NCBI RefSeq assembly: GCF_045037415.1
Contig: NZ_CP173438.1
From: Escherichia coli
Lineage (GTDB): Bacteria; Pseudomonadota; Gammaproteobacteria; Enterobacterales; Enterobacteriaceae
DNA length: 64,000 bases
Direction: 5' to 3' (one strand)
In this document: piece by piece, positions 10,454 to 36,818 of the stretch
Numbering within the stretch: the stretch's first letter is position 1
Layout of the letters: every line of letters begins with the position of its first letter
The notes under the pieces: model-generated
Databases searched by the model: none
The model's input: the letters and a program-made list of their open reading frames with translations, nothing else
What the model was told of the DNA's origin: nothing
Made by a program: the position numbers and the translations under genes

Positions 10454-12079
10454 ATGAATATTTTCACAGAGGCTGCAAAACTCGAAGAGCAAAATTGTCC
10501 GTTTGCGATGGCGCAAATTGTTGATAGCCGAGGCTCAACCCCCCGCCATTCTGCACAAATGTTAGTGCGCGCCGATGGTTCTATCGTCGGTACAATTGGT
10601 GGCGGAATGGTTGAGCGGAAGGTGATTGAAGAGTCGCTTCAGGCATTGCAGGAACGTAAGCCGCGATTATTCCATGGACGTATGGCTCGTAACGGTGCGG
10701 ATGCTGTCGGGTCAGATTGTGGAGGTGCAATGTCAGTATTTATCAGCGTCCATGGTATGCGTCCACGTCTGGTGTTGATTGGTGCGGGGCATGTCAACCG
10801 GGCGATAGCCCAGAGTGCGGCGCTATTAGGATTTGATATCGCCGTTGCCGATATTTATCGCGAAAGCCTCAATCCTGAACTATTCCCACCATCAACCACG
10901 CTTCTCCATGCTGAGTCGTTTGGTGCGGCAGTGGAAGCACTGGATATTCGCCCTGATAATTTTGTCCTGATTGCCACGAATAATCAGGATCGTGAAGCCC
11001 TCGACAAACTCATTGAACAACCCATTGCATGGCTGGGGTTGCTGGCAAGTCGCCGCAAGGTTCAGCTTTTCCTACACCAATTGCGTGAGAAAGGCGTGGC
11101 TGAAGAACATATTGCCCGTTTACATGCGCCCGTTGGTTACAACATAGGTGCGGAAACGCCGCAGGAGATCGCCATCAGCGTGCTGGCAGAAATATTACAG
11201 GTGAAAAATAACGCGCCGGGTGGGCTGATGATGAAGCCTTCTCATCCTTCCGGACACCAGCTGGTGGTGATTCGCGGTGCGGGGGATATCGCCAGTGGTG
11301 TAGCGCTACGTCTGTATCATGCGGGTTTTAAAGTGATCATGTTGGAAGTGGAAAAACCGACAGTGATTCGTTGTACCGTGGCGTTTGCCCAGGCCGTGTT
11401 CGATGGCGAAATGACGGTCGAAGGCGTCACCGCCCGCCTGGCAACCAGCTCTGCGGAAGCGATGAAACTTACCGAACGCGGATTTATCCCTGTGATGGTA
11501 GATCCCACCTGTTCATTGCTTGATGAACTGAAACCGCTTTGCGTGGTGGACGCTATTCTGGCGAAACAGAATTTGGGAACGCGGGCAGATATGGCACCAG
11601 TAACAATCGCGCTTGGGCCGGGCTTTACTGCAGGGAAGGATTGTCATGCGGTAATTGAAACAAATCGCGGGCACTGGCTCGGTCAGGTGATTTACTCAGG
11701 TTGTGCGCAGGAGAATACCGGTGTTCCCGGCAATATTATGGGGCATACCACCCGACGAGTGATCCGCGCTCCTGCTGCAGGCATTATGCGATCCAACGTG
11801 AAATTAGGCGATCTGGTGAAAGAGGGCGATGTCATTGCCTGGATTGGTGAGCATGAAATTAAAGCACCGTTGACGGGGATGGTGCGTGGCTTGTTGAACG
11901 ACGGACTGGCCGTGGTCGGTGGTTTTAAAATTGGTGATATCGATCCTCGTGGTGAAACGGCTGATTTCACCAGCGTTTCTGATAAAGCCCGGGCGATTGG
12001 CGGCGGCGTACTTGAGGCGTTAATGATGTTGATGCATCAGGGCGTTAAAGCGACAAAAGAAGTGCTGGAAGTGGCTTAA
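10454..12079 (+). CDS. yqeB: XdhC/CoxI-family molybdenum hydroxylase maturation protein
   Basis: 541 aa; Rossmann-like LVLIGAGHV segment; follows yqeC by 47 nt. Confidence 0.88.
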   Translation: MNIFTEAAKLEEQNCPFAMAQIVDSRGSTPRHSAQMLVRADGSIVGTIGGGMVERKVIEESLQALQERKPRLFHGRMARNGADAVGSDCGGAMSVFISVHGMRPRLVLIGAGHVNRAIAQSAALLGFDIAVADIYRESLNPELFPPSTTLLHAESFGAAVEALDIRPDNFVLIATNNQDREALDKLIEQPIAWLGLLASRRKVQLFLHQLREKGVAEEHIARLHAPVGYNIGAETPQEIAISVLAEILQVKNNAPGGLMMKPSHPSGHQLVVIRGAGDIASGVALRLYHAGFKVIMLEVEKPTVIRCTVAFAQAVFDGEMTVEGVTARLATSSAEAMKLTERGFIPVMVDPTCSLLDELKPLCVVDAILAKQNLGTRADMAPVTIALGPGFTAGKDCHAVIETNRGHWLGQVIYSGCAQENTGVPGNIMGHTTRRVIRAPAAGIMRSNVKLGDLVKEGDVIAWIGEHEIKAPLTGMVRGLLNDGLAVVGGFKIGDIDPRGETADFTSVSDKARAIGGGVLEALMMLMHQGVKATKEVLEVA

Positions 12080-12087
12080 ATGAAAAT

Positions 12088-12113
12088 GGCCGGATGGTAT
12101 TACCCATCCGGCC
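12088..12113. terminator. Bidirectional hairpin terminator between convergent yqeB and yqeA
   Basis: GGCCGGATGG-tatta-CCCATCCGGCC followed by TTTAAATT. Confidence 0.6.
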
Positions 12114-12119
12114 TTTAAA

Positions 12120-13052
12120 TTACTGACAAATCACCGTTCCGGTTTTGCCTTCAATCCCTTCTTTCGCTTTGCTCAATACGGTAATCAGTGCTTCACGACC
12201 TGCGCGAGAGCGAGCAAACGAGGCGGCAGCTTCCACTTTAGGCAGCATAGAACCTTTCGCAAAATGACCTTCTTCGATAAAGCGTTCAGCATCACTTAAT
12301 GACAGGCGATCGAGCCACTGTTCATTCTCTTTTCCGAAGTTAATGGCCACTTTTTCTACCGCAGTCAGAATGATCAGCATATCGGCATCGATCATTTCTG
12401 CTAAACGGGCACTGGCCCAGTCTTTATCGATAACCGCGCTGGCACCACGCAGATGGTTACCTTCACGAATAACAGGGATACCACCACCGCCAACGGTGAT
12501 CACCACCTGTCCGGCATCTACCAGAGCTTTAACCGTTTCTTTTTCAATGATATCAACCGGTTTTGGCGAAGCAACGACACGACGATAGCCGCGACCCGCA
12601 TCTTCTTTCAGAGTGTAACCCTGTTTTGTCAGTAGCTCTGCTTCTTGCTCGGTAAAGAACGAACCAATCGGCTTGGTCGGGTTGAGGAATGCCGGATCGT
12701 TAGCATCGACTTCGACCTGGGTAACCAGCGTTGCTACAGGTTTATTAATGCCACGAGAAAGCAGTTCTTCTCTTAAGGCGTTTTGTAGATCGTAACCAAT
12801 ATAACCCTGGCTTAAGGCAACACAGACAGACATCGGCAGCATTGGCGAGTGCGCTTCAGTTTTTGCGGCAGCTTCAAAGGCCTGGTTAATCATGCCCACC
12901 TGTGGCCCGTTGCCATGAGTGACGATGACCTCATGTCCCTGGGCAATTAAATCAACAATTGCCTGAGAAGTAATTTTTACCGCTTTCATTTGTCCGGCCA
13001 GGTCATCGCCCAGCGCATTCCCGCCCAGGGCGAGAACAATTTTCTTACTCAT
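12120..13052 (-). CDS. yqeA: Carbamate kinase
   Basis: 310 aa; N-terminus MSKKIVLALGGNALG typical of carbamate kinases. Confidence 0.93.
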   Translation of the reverse strand: MSKKIVLALGGNALGDDLAGQMKAVKITSQAIVDLIAQGHEVIVTHGNGPQVGMINQAFEAAAKTEAHSPMLPMSVCVALSQGYIGYDLQNALREELLSRGINKPVATLVTQVEVDANDPAFLNPTKPIGSFFTEQEAELLTKQGYTLKEDAGRGYRRVVASPKPVDIIEKETVKALVDAGQVVITVGGGGIPVIREGNHLRGASAVIDKDWASARLAEMIDADMLIILTAVEKVAINFGKENEQWLDRLSLSDAERFIEEGHFAKGSMLPKVEAAASFARSRAGREALITVLSKAKEGIEGKTGTVICQ

Positions 13053-13099
13053 TTTTCCTCACTCATCATTCTTGATTGTGTATAGATCCCTGGCAGTGG

Positions 13100-14485
13100 T
13101 TAGAGCACGGGAGGGACAAACGGTTTGCGTCGCAGGAAACGACCTCGCCCGGCTTTGCCTGTAAAGGTGCCGTCGCAGAAAATCGTTTCACCACGGGATA
13201 AGGTTCTGACAATCGCGCCCTGACAGGTAAAACCCTCCCATGGCGAGTAGTCAGCGTTGTCGTGGAGATGGCGATGCTGAATTTGTTGGCTCTGACGTGG
13301 GTCTATAATCACCACGTCGCCATCGGAACCGGGCGCTAATAATCCTTTTTGTGGCCACAGGCCAAACAGCCTGGCGGGCATTGCACTGGTTAACTCAACA
13401 AAACGCTCCGGTGAGATACGCCCCGTCATCACGCCACTGGAGAACAGCAGTTGCATGCGGTTCTCCACACCGGGTAAGCCATTTGGGCAGCGGCTGAAAT
13501 CGCCTTTAGAAATTTGCAGGCGTTGAGCCATCGAGAAGGTGCAGTGATCGGTTGCCACCACGTCAATCGCACCATCGCTGATGCCACACCACAGTTTGTC
13601 CTGCTCGCGTACGTTACGCAGCGGTGGGCTAAGAATGAACTTCATGCCATCTTCTGTATCGTAACTGCGTTCGTCCAACAGGAGATATTGTGGGCAGGTT
13701 TCAACCCAGACTGGCTGGTGATTCGCACGGGCAAGACGCAGATAATCCAGACCTAAGCCGTTAGACAGGTGCACGATATAGAGCGGGGCGTTACCGGCAA
13801 TTTGTGCCAGGTTAATCATGCGGGCGATGGCTTCCGCTTCGCATTCCAGAGGTCGACTCAAGGCATGATAACGCGGCGCGGTTAACCCTGCGGCGATAAA
13901 CTCCGCCCGCTTGCTGGCGATAGCTGCGTCATTTTCCGGGTGCACGGTGGTCAGCGCGCCGGACTCATGCAAGCGGCGTAATGCCTGCAACACTTCATCA
14001 TCGTTGAGTTTATATTGATAGGTTAAATAGAGTTTAAAACTGCTCAGTCCTTCCTCAACCATCATCGGAATTTCGTCGAGGATAGCGTGATTAATATGTT
14101 GAATGACACCGTGAAAGCTGTAGTCGATGACTGCTTTGTGGGCGGCATAACCGCGATAAACTTCCAGTTGATGGCGTAACCGGCAGCCATTTGGGCCAAA
14201 TCCCATATGGTCAATAATGGTTGTTGTACCGCCACACGCAGCTGCGCGGGTACCGGTAAAAAAATCATCACAACTGCGCGCGATGCCGACATCAATATTG
14301 AAATGCGTATGGACATCCACGCCGCCAGGGAAAACGTAACAGCCAGAGGCATCAATTTCTTCGCAAGGGAGTTGCGGCGAAATATCGGTACCCAACTGGC
14401 GAACAATCCCGCTTTCAATCAGCAAATCCTGCTTCGCCTGTCCATCTGCATTAACAACAATGCCGTTTTTTATCAATACGCGCAT
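13100..14485 (-). CDS. hyuA: Cyclic amidohydrolase (D-phenylhydantoinase/dihydropyrimidinase family)
   Basis: GGVDVHTHF metal-binding motif; ATG at 14485 with GGAG RBS preferred over the upstream TTG of the 465-aa track ORF, giving 461 aa. Confidence 0.92.
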   Translation of the reverse strand: MRVLIKNGIVVNADGQAKQDLLIESGIVRQLGTDISPQLPCEEIDASGCYVFPGGVDVHTHFNIDVGIARSCDDFFTGTRAAACGGTTTIIDHMGFGPNGCRLRHQLEVYRGYAAHKAVIDYSFHGVIQHINHAILDEIPMMVEEGLSSFKLYLTYQYKLNDDEVLQALRRLHESGALTTVHPENDAAIASKRAEFIAAGLTAPRYHALSRPLECEAEAIARMINLAQIAGNAPLYIVHLSNGLGLDYLRLARANHQPVWVETCPQYLLLDERSYDTEDGMKFILSPPLRNVREQDKLWCGISDGAIDVVATDHCTFSMAQRLQISKGDFSRCPNGLPGVENRMQLLFSSGVMTGRISPERFVELTSAMPARLFGLWPQKGLLAPGSDGDVVIIDPRQSQQIQHRHLHDNADYSPWEGFTCQGAIVRTLSRGETIFCDGTFTGKAGRGRFLRRKPFVPPVL

Positions 14486-14500
14486 AGCAAACTCCAAAAA

Positions 14501-14520
14501 CCCTCCGGTGAACCGGAGGG
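14501..14520 (-). promoter_or_regulatory. Intercistronic hairpin with U-run overlapping the hyuA ribosome-binding site
   Basis: Minus strand: CCCTCCGGttcaCCGGAGGG, then TTTTT, then GGAG and ATG of hyuA. Confidence 0.45.
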
Positions 14521-14537
14521 GAATAAGTGAAGAGTAA

Positions 14538-15749
14538 TTATTCGGTTGCCAGCCAGCTTAATGGGATTGCAGCGTACATAGCGGCACAGGTTACCAGGTG
14601 AGATTTCCAGGTTTTTTCGTTTGGCGCGTGCGCTTCCGGTTCTTTACCGGGGCCAAAACCGATGACCGGAATGCCGTGGCGACCCATGATGGATACGCCA
14701 TTAGTCGAGAAGGTCCACTTATCAACGACAGGCGCTTTACCAAACAGCCCTTCATAAGCATTCACCAGTGCTTTAACGGTGAAGTGATCTTCTTCCACTT
14801 TCCAGGTCGGGAAGTAGCATTCGGTTGGGTAAACCAGGCCAGTCCAGGACGGGCGGTCGTAGTTGTACATAGAAACGACAGCATTCGCTTTTTGTACTGC
14901 AGGCAGGGCACGGATCTCGTCCAGCGCGCCTTCCCAGGTTTCGCCCCAGGTCAGACGACGGTCGATTGAAACTGCGCAGCTGTCTGCGACAGCGCAACGG
15001 CTTGGGGAGGTGAAGAAAATTTCAGAAACGGTGAGGGTGCCTTTGCCGAGGAATTCGTCATAACCCAGACGTTGGGAGAGTTCTTGTAATTCGCCAAGAA
15101 TCGGACCCATTTTGAAAATGGCGTTATCACCGCGTTCTGGTGCCGAACCGTGGCAGCTAACACCCTGAACATCAATACGAATTTCCATACGACCGCGTTG
15201 ACCACGGTATACCTGGCAGTCGGTTGGTTCGGTACTGACCACAAATTCCGGGCGAATGCCGGATTGTTCAATAATGTACTGCCAGCACAGGCCGTCGCAG
15301 TCTTCTTCCTGCACAGTACCGGTAACCAGCAGGGTATATTCATCTTCCAGACCGAGATCTTTAATGATTTTACCGGCATATACCATAGACGCCATGCCGC
15401 CTTCCTGGTCGGAAGTACCACGACCACCGATCAGCTCGTCGGTTTCCATGCCTTCATACGGATCGAAGTCCCAGTTTTTGATGTTGCCAATGCCGACTGT
15501 ATCGATATGAGCGTCCATTGCCACCAGACGCGGGCCGTGGCCGATATAACCGAGAACGTTGCCCATTGGGTCGATTTCAACTTTATCGAAGCCGACTTTT
15601 TCCATCTCTTCTTTAATACGATGTACTACGCGTTTCTCGTCGCAGCTTTCACTGGGAATAGCAACCATATCGCGCAGGAAGCGAGTCATGTCTGCCTGGT
15701 AATCTTTTGCTTTTTCAAGAATCAGTTTGAATGGAATATTCTTAGCCAT
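14538..15749 (-). CDS. ygeY: M20-family metallopeptidase/deacylase (ArgE/DapE-like)
   Basis: 403 aa; M20 family assignment rests mainly on length and operon position (by recall); no specific motif checked. Confidence 0.9.
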
Positions 15750-15806
15750 TATTTTTCTCCAGATTTTTTACTCCCCGTTTTGCAGGGAGCAGTTCCAATA
15801 GGGTGA

Positions 15807-17003
15807 TTAAGGTGCTACAGCGTGTTTGCCTTCCCAGACAACTTCGCGGTAGTGCTTCACGTCGGTGTCGCCTTCAGTGCTGATAACCAGCACCACGGCA
15901 TCTTTGTTCAGCGCCAGTTTTTCCATCAGGCTTTGACGTTGCGGGTGATAATGAACCGCTGCGAGAACGCCCAAACCGACAGCGCCGGATTCACCGGAGA
16001 TGATGCGCGGGTCGTTGCCGTACGGATTACCCAGCACGCGCATACCTAATGCGGCAACGCTGTCCTGGCAGGAGATGAATTGGGTGGCGCAGTTACGTAG
16101 GATTTCCCAGCCCAGCGGGTTAGGTTCGCCGCAGGCCAGGCCCGCCATGATGGTGGCCATATCACCGCCAACGTTGACGATGTCGCCTTTGACGCCGGAG
16201 CGATAAATACAGTCAGCTTTGTCAGGTTCAACAATAATGCTGTGCAGATTTTGCGGGCTATAGACGTCGACCAGATAACCCAGCACACCACCGGCCATTG
16301 CACCGACACCTGCTTGCAGCAGAACGTGTGTCGGGGTTACGCCCATTTCACGCATTTGCTCGACGGCTTCATCCGCCAGTGTTGCGTAGCCTTGCATGAT
16401 CCAGGTTGGGATTTTGGTGTAACCTTCCCATGCCGTGTCCTGTACCACTTCCCAGCCGTGCTGCTGCGCGTGTTGCATGGTCAGGCGAACGGTATCGTCA
16501 TAGTTCATATCCGTGACGATGCACTCGGCACCGAGGTTTAGAATGGCGTCAACGCGTTCCTGAGCAGAACCTTTCGGCATGTAAATCACCGCATTCTGTC
16601 CGAGTTGCTGAGCGGCCCATGCCACACCGCGCCCGTGGTTGCCGTCGGTGGTGGTCGCGAAAGTCATTTTTTCGCCAATGGCATTTTTCAGGTGCTCAAA
16701 TGATAGCGTTTCGATATCAAGATGATATTTTTCACACAATAATTGAGCGATGGCGTATGCGCCGCCGAGCATTTTGAAGGCGTTCAGACCGAAGCGTTTT
16801 GATTCGTCCTTAACGAGAATTTTCTTTACACCAAACAGGTTTGCGAGATCGTCCAGCGCACAAAGCGGTGTTGGGCGATAACCAGCAATTTTCTGGTGGA
16901 ACTGGCGTGCCAGTTTTGCCTGGCTTTGCGAAAAAAGCGGTGATGTTTCGCCGTTGAAAAATTTGTTATCGGCGATATCAATCTTTAATGAGAAAACGGA
17001 CAT
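15807..17003 (-). CDS. ygeX: PLP-dependent diaminopropionate ammonia-lyase
   Basis: 398 aa; fold-type II PLP enzyme features; position between ygeY and ygeW. Confidence 0.9.
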   Translation of the reverse strand: MSVFSLKIDIADNKFFNGETSPLFSQSQAKLARQFHQKIAGYRPTPLCALDDLANLFGVKKILVKDESKRFGLNAFKMLGGAYAIAQLLCEKYHLDIETLSFEHLKNAIGEKMTFATTTDGNHGRGVAWAAQQLGQNAVIYMPKGSAQERVDAILNLGAECIVTDMNYDDTVRLTMQHAQQHGWEVVQDTAWEGYTKIPTWIMQGYATLADEAVEQMREMGVTPTHVLLQAGVGAMAGGVLGYLVDVYSPQNLHSIIVEPDKADCIYRSGVKGDIVNVGGDMATIMAGLACGEPNPLGWEILRNCATQFISCQDSVAALGMRVLGNPYGNDPRIISGESGAVGLGVLAAVHYHPQRQSLMEKLALNKDAVVLVISTEGDTDVKHYREVVWEGKHAVAP

Positions 17004-17060
17004 ATCCTATCCTTTTGGCCTCTGGAAATAGAGGGCCGACCAGCTGATCGGCCCGAGGGG

Positions 17061-18251
17061 TTATTTCACGCGTTCTTGCGCTTCTTTCAGCAGTTGCTCG
17101 AGCAGTGCACCTGGTTTGGCGTATTTACGGGACAGGATCATCGCGGCGATGATATAAGGCTTCCAGCTGGCTTCTTTGTAGGTAGCGATACGGTATTTTT
17201 CGAATACGCCTTCAGTCACTTCACCTTCTTTGCAGGATACGCCGCTGATATCAGCTGGCAGGCAGTGCATGTACAGGGCTTCGCCATCACGGGTCAGCTC
17301 CATCATCTCTTCGGTACAATGCCAGTCTTTGTGCTGTGCGTTCTGTGCCAGACACTGTTTTTCCAGCGCTTTCAGTCCTTCGTGATCGTTCGCACGCAGC
17401 AGTTCAGTACGCTCTTCCATCACTTTGTAAGGTGCCCAGGACTTCGGATAAACGATGTCTGCGTCTTTGAAGGCTTCTTCCATGCTGGTGACCTGACGGA
17501 AGCTACCACCGGAGGCTTTAGCATTGTTTTTAGCAACTTCAACGACATCCGGGATCAGGTCGTAGCCTTCCGGATGGGCCAGGGTGACATCCATACCGAA
17601 GCGGGTCATCAGACCGATGATGCCTTGTGGTACAGAGAGCGGTTTGCCATAGCTTGGGGAGTAGGCCCAGGTCATGGCGATTTTTTTACCTTTCAGGTTT
17701 TCCAGTGAACCAAAGTGTTCACGTAACCATGCCAGATCAGCCATTGATTGAGTCGGGTGGTCAATATCGCATTGCAGGTTCACTAAAGCCGGACGCTGCG
17801 GCAGCACACCCTGCTTGTAACCGTCATCAAGTGCAGCGCCAACTTCACGCATATAGGCGTTGCCTGCGCCCAGATACATATCGTCGCGAATACCGATAGC
17901 GTCAGCGCAGAAGGAGATCATATTGGCGGTTTCACGCACGGTTTCGCCGTGAGCGATTTGTGATTTACCTTCGTCAAGATCTTGTTGTGCAAGGCCGAGC
18001 AGGTTAAGCGCGGAAGCATAAGAGAAGCGGGTACGGGTGGAATTGTCGCGGAATACGGAAATACCTAATCCACTATTAAAGACTTTGGTTGAGATGTTTT
18101 CAGCACGCAGTGCTTTTAACGCGGCGGCAACGTCCAGTACTTGTTTCAGTTCGTCTGGCGTCTGTTCCCACGTTAACAAAAAATCTTTTTCATGCAGGTG
18201 AGAGGTCAGCGAATTGATATCCTTAATCAGCTCATTAACAGTTTTCATCAT
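17061..18251 (-). CDS. ygeW: Transcarbamylase of unknown specificity (ATCase/OTCase fold)
   Basis: 396 aa; carbamoyl-phosphate motif STRTR and HCLP motif both present. Confidence 0.93.
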   Translation of the reverse strand: MMKTVNELIKDINSLTSHLHEKDFLLTWEQTPDELKQVLDVAAALKALRAENISTKVFNSGLGISVFRDNSTRTRFSYASALNLLGLAQQDLDEGKSQIAHGETVRETANMISFCADAIGIRDDMYLGAGNAYMREVGAALDDGYKQGVLPQRPALVNLQCDIDHPTQSMADLAWLREHFGSLENLKGKKIAMTWAYSPSYGKPLSVPQGIIGLMTRFGMDVTLAHPEGYDLIPDVVEVAKNNAKASGGSFRQVTSMEEAFKDADIVYPKSWAPYKVMEERTELLRANDHEGLKALEKQCLAQNAQHKDWHCTEEMMELTRDGEALYMHCLPADISGVSCKEGEVTEGVFEKYRIATYKEASWKPYIIAAMILSRKYAKPGALLEQLLKEAQERVK

Positions 18252-18343
18252 AAAGTCCCGATAGTGGAATGACAGGCAAAGTGGTTTATTTCACTGTGAC
18301 GTGCCAAAGTGATTGGTGTTTTCACAGCTATACCTCGGACTAA

Positions 18344-18357
18344 CAATAAGTGTGCCA
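18344..18357 (-). promoter_or_regulatory. Weak candidate sigma-54 promoter upstream of ygeW
   Basis: Minus strand TGGCACACTTATTGTT: perfect -24 TGGCAC but -12 reads TTGT instead of TTGC. Confidence 0.25.
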
Positions 18358-18400
18358 GAATTATCCACGCGGCTGCGAAAGGCTAATTTGACGGATAATG

Positions 18401-18416
18401 TGTGGGGTTGATCACA
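18401..18416. promoter_or_regulatory. CRP-like palindrome in ygeW-ygeV divergent region
   Basis: TGTGGGGTTGATCACA (TGTGg-N6-TCACA). Confidence 0.3.
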
Positions 18417-18726
18417 TATTGATGCCAGTTTCCGGTTGTTTGTAAAATACGAAAACGTTTGGCTTTTTTTATTACGTTATTTATTTGCTGCTAAGTATCA
18501 GAAATAAGATAAAGAGGCAGGCTATCTCTCTTCAGTTTGATAAACTTGCCGCTGTAATTCTCATATTGATATAGAAATGTGATATCTCTTCCATAATTTT
18601 ATTAGAAAGTGATAAAAATCTTATGTTTTTATCAAAGCCAATTTCGCCTGAGTTAATATCATCATGATCTGTGAACCATCAACGTCTTCAATGATCGACT
18701 TTTAAGTAAGTCTGGAAGGTAAAGCT

Positions 18727-20505
18727 ATGGAGCTTGCGACTACGCAGTCAGTATTGATGCAAATTCAACCAACAATTCAGCGTTTTGCCAGAATGCTTGC
18801 CAGCGTTTTGCAGCTTGAGGTTGAGATCGTTGATGAAAACTTGTGTCGCGTCGCCGGAACGGGCGCGTATGGGAAGTTTCTTGGCCGCCAGTTGAGCGGC
18901 AACTCACGTCTGCTCCGCCACGTCCTGGAAACGAAAACTGAAAAAGTTGTGACACAGTCTCGCTTCGATCCCCTTTGTGAAGGTTGCGATAGTAAAGAAA
19001 ATTGCCGCGAAAAAGCATTTCTGGGTACGCCAGTCATTTTACAGGATCGTTGTGTTGGGGTGATAAGTTTGATTGCCGTTACCCACGAGCAACAAGAACA
19101 TATCAGTGATAATTTACGCGAATTTTCCGATTACGTTCGCCATATATCCACCATTTTTGTTTCTAAACTTCTGGAGGATCAGGGACCAGGAGATAACATC
19201 AGTAAAATATTCGCGACCATGATCGATAATATGGATCAGGGCGTGTTAGTGGTTGATGCTGATAATCGGGTTCAGTTTGTTAATCAGACAGCTTTAAAAA
19301 CACTCGGTGTTGTACAAAATAATATTATTGGAAAACCTGTTCGTTTCAGACCATTAACATTTGAGAGTAATTTTACCCATGGTCATATGCAACATATTGT
19401 TTCGTGGGATGATAAAAGTGAATTAATCATTGGTCAGTTGCATAACATCCAGGGCCGACAACTATTTTTAATGGCGTTTCACCAATCGCATACCAGTTTT
19501 TCTGTAGCAAATGCACCTGATGAACCGCATATTGAACAATTGGTTGGCGAGTGCCGTGTTATGCGGCAATTAAAACGACTCATTAGCCGTATTGCACCCA
19601 GCCCATCCAGCGTTATGGTGGTTGGTGAAAGCGGCACGGGTAAAGAAGTCGTCGCCCGTGCAATCCATAAGTTGAGCGGAAGACGGAATAAACCCTTTAT
19701 TGCTATCAACTGTGCCGCGATTCCGGAACAGCTTCTGGAGAGCGAACTGTTCGGTTATGTTAAAGGCGCATTTACTGGCGCTTCTGCCAACGGTAAAACA
19801 GGGTTGATTCAGGCGGCGAATACGGGCACGCTGTTTCTCGATGAAATTGGTGATATGCCATTAATGTTGCAGGCTAAATTACTGCGCGCTATTGAGGCGC
19901 GTGAAATTCTGCCGATTGGTGCCAGTAGCCCAATACAAGTCGACATCCGCATCATTTCTGCAACTAATCAGAATTTGGCCCAGTTCATTGCCGAAGGTAA
20001 ATTCCGCGAAGATCTCTTCTACCGACTTAATGTTATCCCGATAACTCTTCCACCGCTGCGTGAACGTCAGGAAGATATTGAATTACTAGTGCATTACTTT
20101 TTACATCTGCATACCCGTCGTCTGGGATCGGTTTATCCTGGCATTGCTCCTGATGTCGTCGAAATATTGCGTAAGCATCGTTGGCCCGGAAACCTGCGCG
20201 AGTTAAGCAATTTGATGGAATATCTGGTTAACGTTGTTCCTTCAGGTGAAGTTATCGACAGCACGCTATTGCCGCCAAATCTGCTGAATAATGGCACAAC
20301 GGAGCAAAGTGATGTAACAGAGGCCAGTGAGGCGCACCTGTCACTCGATGATGCGGGCGGCACGGCGCTGGAAGAGATGGAAAAGCAAATGATCCGCGAG
20401 GCGCTTTCACGTCATAACAGCAAGAAGGAAGTTGCTGATGAACTGGGCATCGGCATTGCTACGCTCTATCGCAAGATTAAGAAATATGAGTTGTTAAACA
20501 CATAA
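18727..20505 (+). CDS. ygeV: Sigma-54-dependent transcriptional activator (bacterial enhancer-binding protein) with N-terminal sensor domain
   Basis: 592 aa; Walker A GESGTGKE, GAFTGA sigma-54 contact motif, C-terminal HTH. Confidence 0.95.
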   Translation: MELATTQSVLMQIQPTIQRFARMLASVLQLEVEIVDENLCRVAGTGAYGKFLGRQLSGNSRLLRHVLETKTEKVVTQSRFDPLCEGCDSKENCREKAFLGTPVILQDRCVGVISLIAVTHEQQEHISDNLREFSDYVRHISTIFVSKLLEDQGPGDNISKIFATMIDNMDQGVLVVDADNRVQFVNQTALKTLGVVQNNIIGKPVRFRPLTFESNFTHGHMQHIVSWDDKSELIIGQLHNIQGRQLFLMAFHQSHTSFSVANAPDEPHIEQLVGECRVMRQLKRLISRIAPSPSSVMVVGESGTGKEVVARAIHKLSGRRNKPFIAINCAAIPEQLLESELFGYVKGAFTGASANGKTGLIQAANTGTLFLDEIGDMPLMLQAKLLRAIEAREILPIGASSPIQVDIRIISATNQNLAQFIAEGKFREDLFYRLNVIPITLPPLRERQEDIELLVHYFLHLHTRRLGSVYPGIAPDVVEILRKHRWPGNLRELSNLMEYLVNVVPSGEVIDSTLLPPNLLNNGTTEQSDVTEASEAHLSLDDAGGTALEEMEKQMIREALSRHNSKKEVADELGIGIATLYRKIKKYELLNT

Positions 20506-25452: not shown

Positions 25453-25526
25453 GCGGGCGTAGTTCAATGGTAGAACGAGAGCTTCCCAAGCTCTATACGA
25501 GGGTTCGATTCCCTTCGCCCGCTCCA
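25453..25526 (+). tRNA. glyU: tRNA-Gly (anticodon CCC)
   Basis: GCGGGCGTAGTTCAATGGTAGAACGAGAGCTTCCCAAGCTCTATACGAGGGTTCGATTCCCTTCGCCCGCTCCA; cloverleaf with 7-bp acceptor stem, CCC anticodon, encoded CCA. Confidence 0.95.
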
Positions 25527-36533: not shown

Positions 36534-36615
36534 CCCAGAGGTATTGATAGGTGAAGTCAACTTCGGGTTGAGCACATGAATTACACCAGCCTGCGCAGAT
36601 GCGCAGGTTTTTTTT
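36534..36615 (+). ncRNA. omrB: OmrB small regulatory RNA (Hfq-dependent, OmpR-controlled)
   Basis: CCCAGAGGTATTGATAGGTGAAGTCAACTTCGGG...CCTGCGCAGATGCGCAGG plus T9 terminator. Confidence 0.9.
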
Positions 36616-36730: not shown

Positions 36731-36818
36731 CCCAGAGGTATTGATTGGTGAGATTATTCGGTACGCTCTTCGTACCCTGTCTCTTGCACCAACCTGCGCG
36801 GATGCGCAGGTTTTTTTT
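36731..36818 (+). ncRNA. omrA: OmrA small regulatory RNA (paralogue of OmrB)
   Basis: CCCAGAGGTATTGATTGGTGAGATTATTCGG...CCTGCGCGGATGCGCAGG plus T8 terminator; same 5' and 3' ends as OmrB. Confidence 0.9.

Follow-up and report, generated by a model that had tools for sequence, protein, structure and literature searches.

The hairpin in the spacer between ygeY and hyuA of Escherichia coli has, in this species, every sequence feature of a Rho-independent terminator. We propose that it probably works as a leaky intrinsic terminator inside a single ygeW-ygeX-ygeY-hyuA-yqeA unit, where it would lower hyuA-yqeA relative to ygeWXY, and that its stem is probably older than the terminator. This is the simplest reconciliation of the terminator features and a mapped RNA 3' end with the lack of promoter-like motifs at hyuA and yqeA and the co-regulation of hyuA with ygeWXY. 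In this proposal the 3' end would arise by termination rather than by trimming, termination would be partial, hyuA would depend on read-through, and the stem would serve as a stabiliser in species whose hairpin has no U-tract.

Results

Layout of the ygeY-hyuA boundary

The stretch of DNA that we analysed, 64,000 nt long and here called the window, is E. coli chromosome, and about 3 kb round the hairpin is 100% identical to several complete genomes. The gene identities come from the annotation of such 100%-identical E. coli records, which gives ygeX(dpaL)-ygeY-hyuA-yqeA(arcC). The minus strand is the sense strand of the operon, whose gene order is ygeW-ygeX-ygeY-hyuA-yqeA. Its features, in window coordinates, are as follows.

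18342-18357, minus: sigma-54-type promoter candidate, TGGCACACTTATTGTT, about 90 nt upstream of ygeW
18251-17061, minus: ygeW
17054-17033, minus: hairpin in the ygeW-ygeX spacer, GGGCCGATCAGCTGGTCGGCCC, 9-bp G+C-rich stem, -18.3 kcal/mol, U-poor tail
17003-15807, minus: ygeX
15791-15769, minus: hairpin in the ygeX-ygeY spacer, -14 kcal/mol, without a U tract
15749-14538, minus: ygeY
14540-14538, minus: ygeY stop codon TAA
14537-14521, minus: A/U-rich linker of 17 nt from the ygeY stop to the hairpin
14520-14501, minus: terminator hairpin, 8-bp stem, -16.6 kcal/mol, with covariation, stem invariant in Escherichia
14520-14513, minus: 5' arm of the hairpin, CCCTCCGG
14512-14509, minus: loop of the hairpin, TTCA, 4 nt
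14508-14501, minus: 3' arm of the hairpin, CCGGAGGG
14500-14496, minus: U5 tract (TTTTT), abutting the stem
14495, minus: base matching the dominant Term-seq 3' terminus (NC_000913.3 3,010,018; the peak, 3,010,012-3,010,020, equals window 14501-14493)
14495-14492, minus: hyuA Shine-Dalgarno sequence GGAG, outside the stem and predicted to be accessible
14485-14483, minus: hyuA start codon ATG, where the protein alignments of orthologues begin in nearly all loci
14485-13100, minus: hyuA
13052-12120, minus: yqeA
12088-12113, both strands: bidirectional terminator hairpin of 10 bp between the convergent ends of yqeA (operon end) and yqeB

As RNA, the 52-nt ygeY-hyuA spacer with its flanking codons reads UAA-UUACUCUUCACUUAUUC-CCCUCCGG-UUCA-CCGGAGGG-UUUUU-GGAG-UUUGCU-AUG, the Shine-Dalgarno sequence being separated from the ATG by TTTGCT (6 nt). 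Seven of the 8 stem pairs are G-C, and U occupies 8 of the 12 bases past the stem (UUUUU and GGAGUUU). The original prediction, made from the letters of the window, had described a GC-rich 8-bp stem followed by UUUUU and then GGAG between the ygeY stop and the hyuA ATG, and the minus strand reads exactly so. An in-frame TTG at 14495-14497 (minus), 12 nt upstream of the hyuA ATG, lies within the U-run and the Shine-Dalgarno sequence, because of which the list of open reading frames extends hyuA to 14497; since this TTG is not conserved in other genera, the annotated ATG stands.

Terminator-like character of the hairpin

Folded as a 28-nt core, the hairpin reaches -16.6 kcal/mol (z = -3.8) and makes up 97% of the ensemble, and none of 200 shuffles is as stable; this supplies the folding-energy calculation that had been suggested along with the original prediction. 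The hairpin is present in both the minimum-free-energy (MFE) and the centroid structure of its 91-nt context, and a terminator scan also reports it. A strict pattern (perfect 8-bp stem with at least 7 G-C pairs, loop of 3-8 nt, at least 5 T in the next 8 bases) matches twice in the 64-kb window, at the ygeY-hyuA hairpin and at one hairpin after ygeV. Because dinucleotide shuffles lead us to expect 0.08 matches per 64 kb on both strands, the hairpin is far beyond chance. The opposite strand of the palindrome has no T-run, which makes the element unidirectional and oriented with the genes. Its d'Aubenton-Carafa-type hairpin-plus-tail score is +29 (values above 0 are terminator-like) against +3.7 for the operon-end terminator, as a rough guide, modern folding energies having been put into the old formula.

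The element therefore has the G+C-rich sense-strand stem-loop of an intrinsic terminator (stem of about 5-14 bp, loop of 3-8 nt), a U-rich tract abutting the stem, which at U5 is shorter than the classic 7-9 U, and in vivo RNA 3' ends at the U-tract, with low counts in 2 of 3 libraries. Rfam gave no match at E <= 1 in 12000-18800, and the scan of the whole window gave nothing in the operon at the gathering score; elsewhere in the window that scan reports the tandem sRNA genes OmrA and OmrB (36534-36615 and 36731-36818, plus) and a tRNA gene (25453-25523, plus). As for regulatory input, we found no leader peptide, antiterminator alternative fold or riboswitch at the hairpin.

A mapped RNA 3' end after the U-run

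In the TRS re-analysis of the Term-seq data of Dar & Sorek (PMC10687069), a 3' terminus of the class "Primary" is assigned to ygeY. The entry lies on the plus strand of NC_000913.3, with a peak at 3,010,012-3,010,020, a dominant position at 3,010,018, a signal of 0.667 and adjusted p values of 0, 1 and 0 (PMC10687069). In MG1655, ygeY ends at 3,009,975 and hyuA starts at 3,010,028; placed by sequence, the stem spans 3,009,993-3,010,012 and the U5 tract 3,010,013-3,010,017. The dominant 3' end is thus at window position 14495, the first base beyond the U-run and the sixth beyond the stem. Mapping of 3' ends near 14495 had been put forward as a check of the original prediction, and the published terminus falls on exactly that base; it also supports the part of the prediction in which the hairpin could be an internal attenuator uncoupling hyuA-yqeA from ygeW-ygeX-ygeY, which we consider a reasonable reading.

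By the definition of the method, a signal of 2/3 stands for two libraries in which the site has at least 10 reads and the 67 nt beyond it contain no 3' ends, with the third below threshold. The ygeY signal is low in counts, comes from LB cultures with the operon nearly silent, is missing from one of the three libraries and, as Term-seq alone, does not separate termination from 3'-5' trimming back to the hairpin. In the same table there are no termini in the ygeW-ygeX or ygeX-ygeY spacers, which carry hairpins without a U-tract (PMC10687069). Nor does the operon strand have a 3' end after yqeA in this table; at the convergent gene ends, it lists one on the yqeB strand (minus in K-12 coordinates), at K-12 position 3,012,394, and none for yqeA (PMC10687069). 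Read-through is therefore presumed, and termination might be close to complete. The supplementary tables of Adams et al. 2021, TERMITe and SMRT-Cappable-seq hold no ends for these genes; absence from several genome-wide 3'-end tables is unsurprising because the operon is silent in laboratory media. Our literature search found no paper naming both ygeY and a terminator.

Conservation of the stem and of the U-tract

A search with HyuA, at one genome per species, gave 80 loci, in nearly all of which ygeY precedes hyuA. Gene order and short spacers are kept in about 70 loci, of which most have no U-tract. The ygeY-hyuA spacer of 43 of 45 Enterobacterales-type loci holds a hairpin with a folding energy of -10 kcal/mol or stronger (median -18.4 kcal/mol), at median distances of 14 nt from the stop and 14 nt from the ATG, and the Shine-Dalgarno sequence follows 1-9 nt past the stem. 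Against shuffles of their own spacers, the z-scores are mostly -2 to -6; the per-locus shuffle controls cover 46 loci, and the hairpin summary was recomputed without shuffles.

The stem sequences themselves vary between loci (CCCTCCGG, TCCCCCGG, CTCCCGTCG, TCCCGCCGC, GCCCCGGCAC, AACCCCGAAGG, GCCCCGCAC and others). A plain MAFFT/RNAalifold consensus of the spacers gave a mis-registered 6-pair helix, and a covariance-model alignment was used instead. Among its 44 matches, 88% of the cells are paired against at most 65% in slid controls; this alignment leans to its own structure, and with a few rows mis-registered the 88% is a lower bound. Cells in which both sides have changed number 44, compared with 14.7 +/- 2.6 in shuffles, and none of 500 shuffles reaches the observed value. 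The aligned sequences thus point to real covariation of the stem arms, with sequences that diverge and complementarity that stays. G-U cells outnumber A-C cells by 20 to 3 in the aligned stems, and the selected structure is therefore the sense-strand RNA, not a DNA site.

Stem, U5 tract, Shine-Dalgarno sequence and spacer are invariant in the sampled E. coli, E. whittamii, Escherichia sp. and Citrobacter MGH106; what varies within Escherichia and the closest Citrobacter is the loop (TTCA, TTCG, TTTA) and codon wobble positions. By the rough hairpin-plus-tail score, only 13 loci are positive, namely in Escherichia, Citrobacter MGH106, C. amalonaticus, one Atlantibacter, Serratia silvae, Hafnia and Morganella, which have the U-tract. 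Negative scores are found in Klebsiella, Raoultella, Kluyvera, Enterobacter, Yokenella, Trabulsiella, Pluralibacter, Kosakonia, Edwardsiella and Buttiauxella, where UCU-GGAG or a similar sequence follows the stem. Since about 30 of the 43 species have a hairpin without a U-tract, termination cannot explain the conservation of the hairpin.

Sister hairpins at the other gene boundaries

The hairpin in the ygeW-ygeX spacer begins 6 nt past the ygeW stop and is present in 48 of 49 loci, with compensatory changes from C-G to U-A (14 sequences) and from G-C to A-U (9). That of the ygeX-ygeY spacer is found in 19 of 47 loci and is lost where the spacer shrinks to 26-33 nt. The hyuA-yqeA spacer, often just 12 nt long, has a hairpin in only 2 of 49 loci. 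Taken with the 43 of 45 loci and the covariation at ygeY-hyuA, these sister hairpins give the operon what is expected of a protective hairpin, a stable and conserved structure at a cistron boundary. In Yokenella regensburgei (L020), the hyuA-yqeA spacer is 124 nt long and carries an insertion, which we take to resemble the enterobacterial ERIC/IRU repeat consensus.

Promoters and operon definition

The candidate TGGCACACTTATTGTT upstream of ygeW is likely, from its sequence, to be the YgeV-dependent promoter, and it would be the only evident one for all five genes; sigma-54-type matches in the window are not above chance overall. A second such match, TGGCACGCCAGTTCCA, with one mismatch, lies inside ygeX at 16897-16912 (minus). 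Within 500 nt upstream of hyuA we found no sigma-70- or sigma-54-like promoter (for sigma-54, at most 2 mismatches in 14486-15000), and the lack of a match in that stretch leads us to discard a promoter of hyuA's own. According to the literature, hyuA belongs to the same YgeV iModulon as ygeWXY, and the five enzymes from ygeW to yqeA serve one pathway. Literature and databases differ as to the operon, with "ygeWXY operon" on one side and one ygeW-arcC operon, in a deletion study, on the other. Because hyuA has no promoter match, is co-regulated with ygeWXY, serves the same pathway and is also counted in one operon with these genes, read-through is probably needed. A partial terminator at the ygeY/hyuA boundary would yield just this split usage.

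Discussion

Proposed mechanism

Based on these findings, we propose that the 8-bp G+C-rich hairpin would form in the nascent RNA, 17 nt past the ygeY stop, during transcription of the spacer. The linker is presumably long enough for the stem to stay folded while a ribosome terminates on ygeY. The hairpin and the U5 tract would then release some transcripts one base past the U-run, giving ygeWXY mRNA with a hairpin-capped 3' end; polymerases that read through would produce the full-length mRNA, on which the hyuA Shine-Dalgarno sequence would be free and hyuA would be translated normally. The net effect would be a hyuA-yqeA output below that of ygeWXY from a single sigma-54/YgeV-dependent promoter, that is, attenuation and not a switch.

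The stem would predate the terminator, as the hairpins after ygeW, ygeX and ygeY are conserved across Enterobacterales without a U-tract. In species that lack the U-tract, the hairpin would most likely be an RNA structure that blocks exonucleases or insulates segments, and the U-tract may have been gained or retained in Escherichia, Hafnia, Morganella and a few others. Hairpins without a U-tract at three boundaries suggest an older role of the stem, for which the best-fitting known role, by analogy, would be a protective, decay-blocking one.

Alternative explanations

The hairpin might only block decay. Transcription would then run through, the RNA would be cleaved downstream and trimmed by 3'-5' exonucleases, and ygeWXY would be stabilised over hyuA-yqeA. 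Such a role would account for a covarying hairpin in 43 of 45 loci of which only 13 have the U-tract, and for the sister hairpins after ygeW and ygeX, which make up a series like that of menBCE; the Term-seq ends fit trimming as well as termination. However, the U5 tract is invariant within E. coli, the 3' end falls where termination predicts it, 6 nt beyond the stem and where the U-run ends, and the hairpins without a U-tract after ygeW (equally stable at -18.3 kcal/mol) and ygeX have no termini in the TRS table, a pattern more in keeping with termination that depends on a U-tract than with trimming to whatever hairpin is present. We therefore regard decay blocking as the only function of the E. 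coli hairpin as possible, though rather unlikely. It is less probable still, and in our opinion doubtful, that the terminator is complete and that hyuA-yqeA have a separate promoter, the two transcription units sharing the regulator YgeV. This would agree with the "ygeWXY operon" of the literature and databases, with an operon strand that has no TRS 3' end at yqeA, and with a ygeY-hyuA terminator that outscores the one at the operon end. Yet the part of ygeY that precedes hyuA has no sigma-70- or sigma-54-like match, the spacer measures just 52 nt and has its promoter-proximal part filled by the hairpin and the Shine-Dalgarno sequence, the gene order and short spacers are kept in about 70 loci of which most lack the U-tract, and ygeW-arcC is treated elsewhere as a single operon.

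The original prediction also held that the hairpin sequesters the hyuA ribosome-binding site and could be a translational switch, in which the Shine-Dalgarno sequence or the AUG would be hidden and then opened by a signal or by translational coupling. CCUCC in the 5' arm could indeed pair with GGAG, and in several species the fold of best energy has a stem lengthened by pairs between GGAG and the 5' flank; in addition, one MFE/centroid fold joins the last codons of ygeY to the spacer and AUG of hyuA. In the E. coli RNA, however, GGAG begins 5 nt and the AUG 15 nt downstream of the stem, neither of them inside it, so that the pairing of Shine-Dalgarno sequence or start codon within the structure that defines such a switch is absent. 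Opening the Shine-Dalgarno sequence is predicted to cost a modest 2.8 kcal/mol in the window. Controls in which the 5' flank was shuffled have a higher cost in 33 of 45 loci (medians 3.0 kcal/mol native and 4.0 kcal/mol shuffled), and in these folding models the 5' flank would, if anything, avoid the Shine-Dalgarno sequence; sequestration by the 5' flank was discarded on this ground, the native flank leaving the site more accessible than the shuffled one. Pairing between the end of ygeY and the start of hyuA exceeds the mean of codon-shuffled controls in only 17 of 45 loci (4.9 against 7.5 in the window), and only 2 of the 45 stand out from these controls; a long-range coupling helix between the 3' codons of ygeY and the hyuA AUG was rejected as well, being no stronger than in the controls. 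Across the 45 loci, no conserved flanking or long-range pairing hides the hyuA Shine-Dalgarno sequence, and no Rfam family matches. The sequestration claim thus fails, and a translational switch seems very improbable to us. We give even less weight to a site at the DNA level, for a dimeric regulator or as a REP/BIME-type repeat, which the perfect 8-4-8 inverted repeat in an intergenic spacer would suggest; the arms change between genera yet stay complementary, which is a signature of structure and not of protein recognition, the wobbles are strand-specific (20 G-U against 3 A-C), and the 64-kb window has no second copy of the repeat at up to 3 mismatches. As the gene cluster is linked to selenium, a SECIS-like reading was also considered, and was dropped because all ygeY stops are TAA or TAG, never TGA. 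Our preferred reading remains a leaky terminator with an accessible hyuA ribosome-binding site downstream.

Comparison with known systems

Partial terminators and attenuators inside operons set gene ratios, an example being the ribosome-controlled mccA-mccB terminator (PMC4231749). The ygeY-hyuA element resembles them in having an intercistronic hairpin with a U-run on the sense strand, a 3' end at the U-run and downstream genes of the same pathway without a promoter of their own. It differs in that there is no sign of regulatory input and the U-run is only 5 nt, and its leakiness is something that we infer. Dar & Sorek 2018 (PMC5927463) describe malE-malF (malEFG), puf and menBCE, the last with consecutive hairpins, as protective 3' RNA structures or mRNA decay terminators, and cite Newbury 1987 and Chen 1988 for protective structures. 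Like these, the ygeW-yqeA unit has stable hairpins at gene boundaries across Enterobacteriaceae, in series after ygeW, ygeX and ygeY and mostly with orthologues that lack the U-tract. The structures of Dar & Sorek lie mostly inside the downstream reading frame, whereas those of ygeW-yqeA lie in spacers; and unlike decay-blocking hairpins, the E. coli ygeY-hyuA copy also carries the U-run of a terminator.

RNA thermometers, riboswitch expression platforms and translational-coupling hairpins share with the element a hairpin a few nucleotides from a Shine-Dalgarno sequence, but the pairing of Shine-Dalgarno sequence or AUG within the structure, which defines switches that sequester a ribosome-binding site, is absent at hyuA. 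REP and BIME elements are likewise G+C-rich intergenic palindromes between operon genes, and REPs can stabilise upstream mRNA. They form a dispersed multi-copy family, however, whereas the ygeY-hyuA hairpin occurs once in 64 kb at up to 3 mismatches, at an orthologous position, and covaries across genera.

Significance

The element is of an ordinary kind that has not been individually described before, with a mildly interesting evolutionary pattern. The genes from ygeW to yqeA make up the lower part of the recently solved urate/purine degradation pathway of gut bacteria, which is relevant to host uric acid. A terminator with a mapped 3' end at the gene boundary would probably explain why databases disagree, and it predicts lower expression of hyuA-yqeA than of ygeWXY. 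For engineering of the cluster, removal of the hairpin or of the U-run should raise hyuA-yqeA output. That the stem is kept and the U-run is optional makes this a case for telling the function of a hairpin from that of termination, with no new principle involved.

A more speculative idea, to which we would not give much weight, is that the three covarying hairpins together form a post-transcriptional stoichiometry module for the anaerobic urate/2,8-dioxopurine pathway, acting by segmental mRNA stabilisation, and that the third was converted independently into a terminator in Escherichia, Hafnia and Morganella. If this were true, it would be a natural case in which a hairpin that blocks decay evolved to attenuate transcription, and attenuation could possibly depend on the coupling of ribosome and polymerase or on a factor that binds the hairpin.

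Insertions and unusual spacers

Several loci depart from the compact spacer. In Escherichia sp. E1V33 and E. whittamii, about 170 nt are inserted after the ygeY stop and before an intact hairpin (L002 5771-5945, and the same place in L052); the insertion contains CCCTCTCCCCTTCGGGGAGAGGGTTAGGGTGAGGGG and is flanked by TGATGACAAAG and TTTGTCAGCA. In Klebsiella indica an insertion of about 205 nt seemingly splits the hairpin arms (L008 5745-5975). Neither insertion has a match in Rfam, and both look like small mobile or repeat elements. The spacers of Aeromonas (L053-L065, L076) are about 100-120 nt long and hold two serial G+C-rich hairpins; those of Photobacterium (L062-L081) are 180-430 nt long and share the motif TTTTCCGTCCCGAGGGTG, and the hyuA start there seemingly lies further upstream. 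In four clinical isolates, E. coli U12A-U15A, a copy of the IS3-family element ISEc52 interrupts the region matching window 13000-16000.
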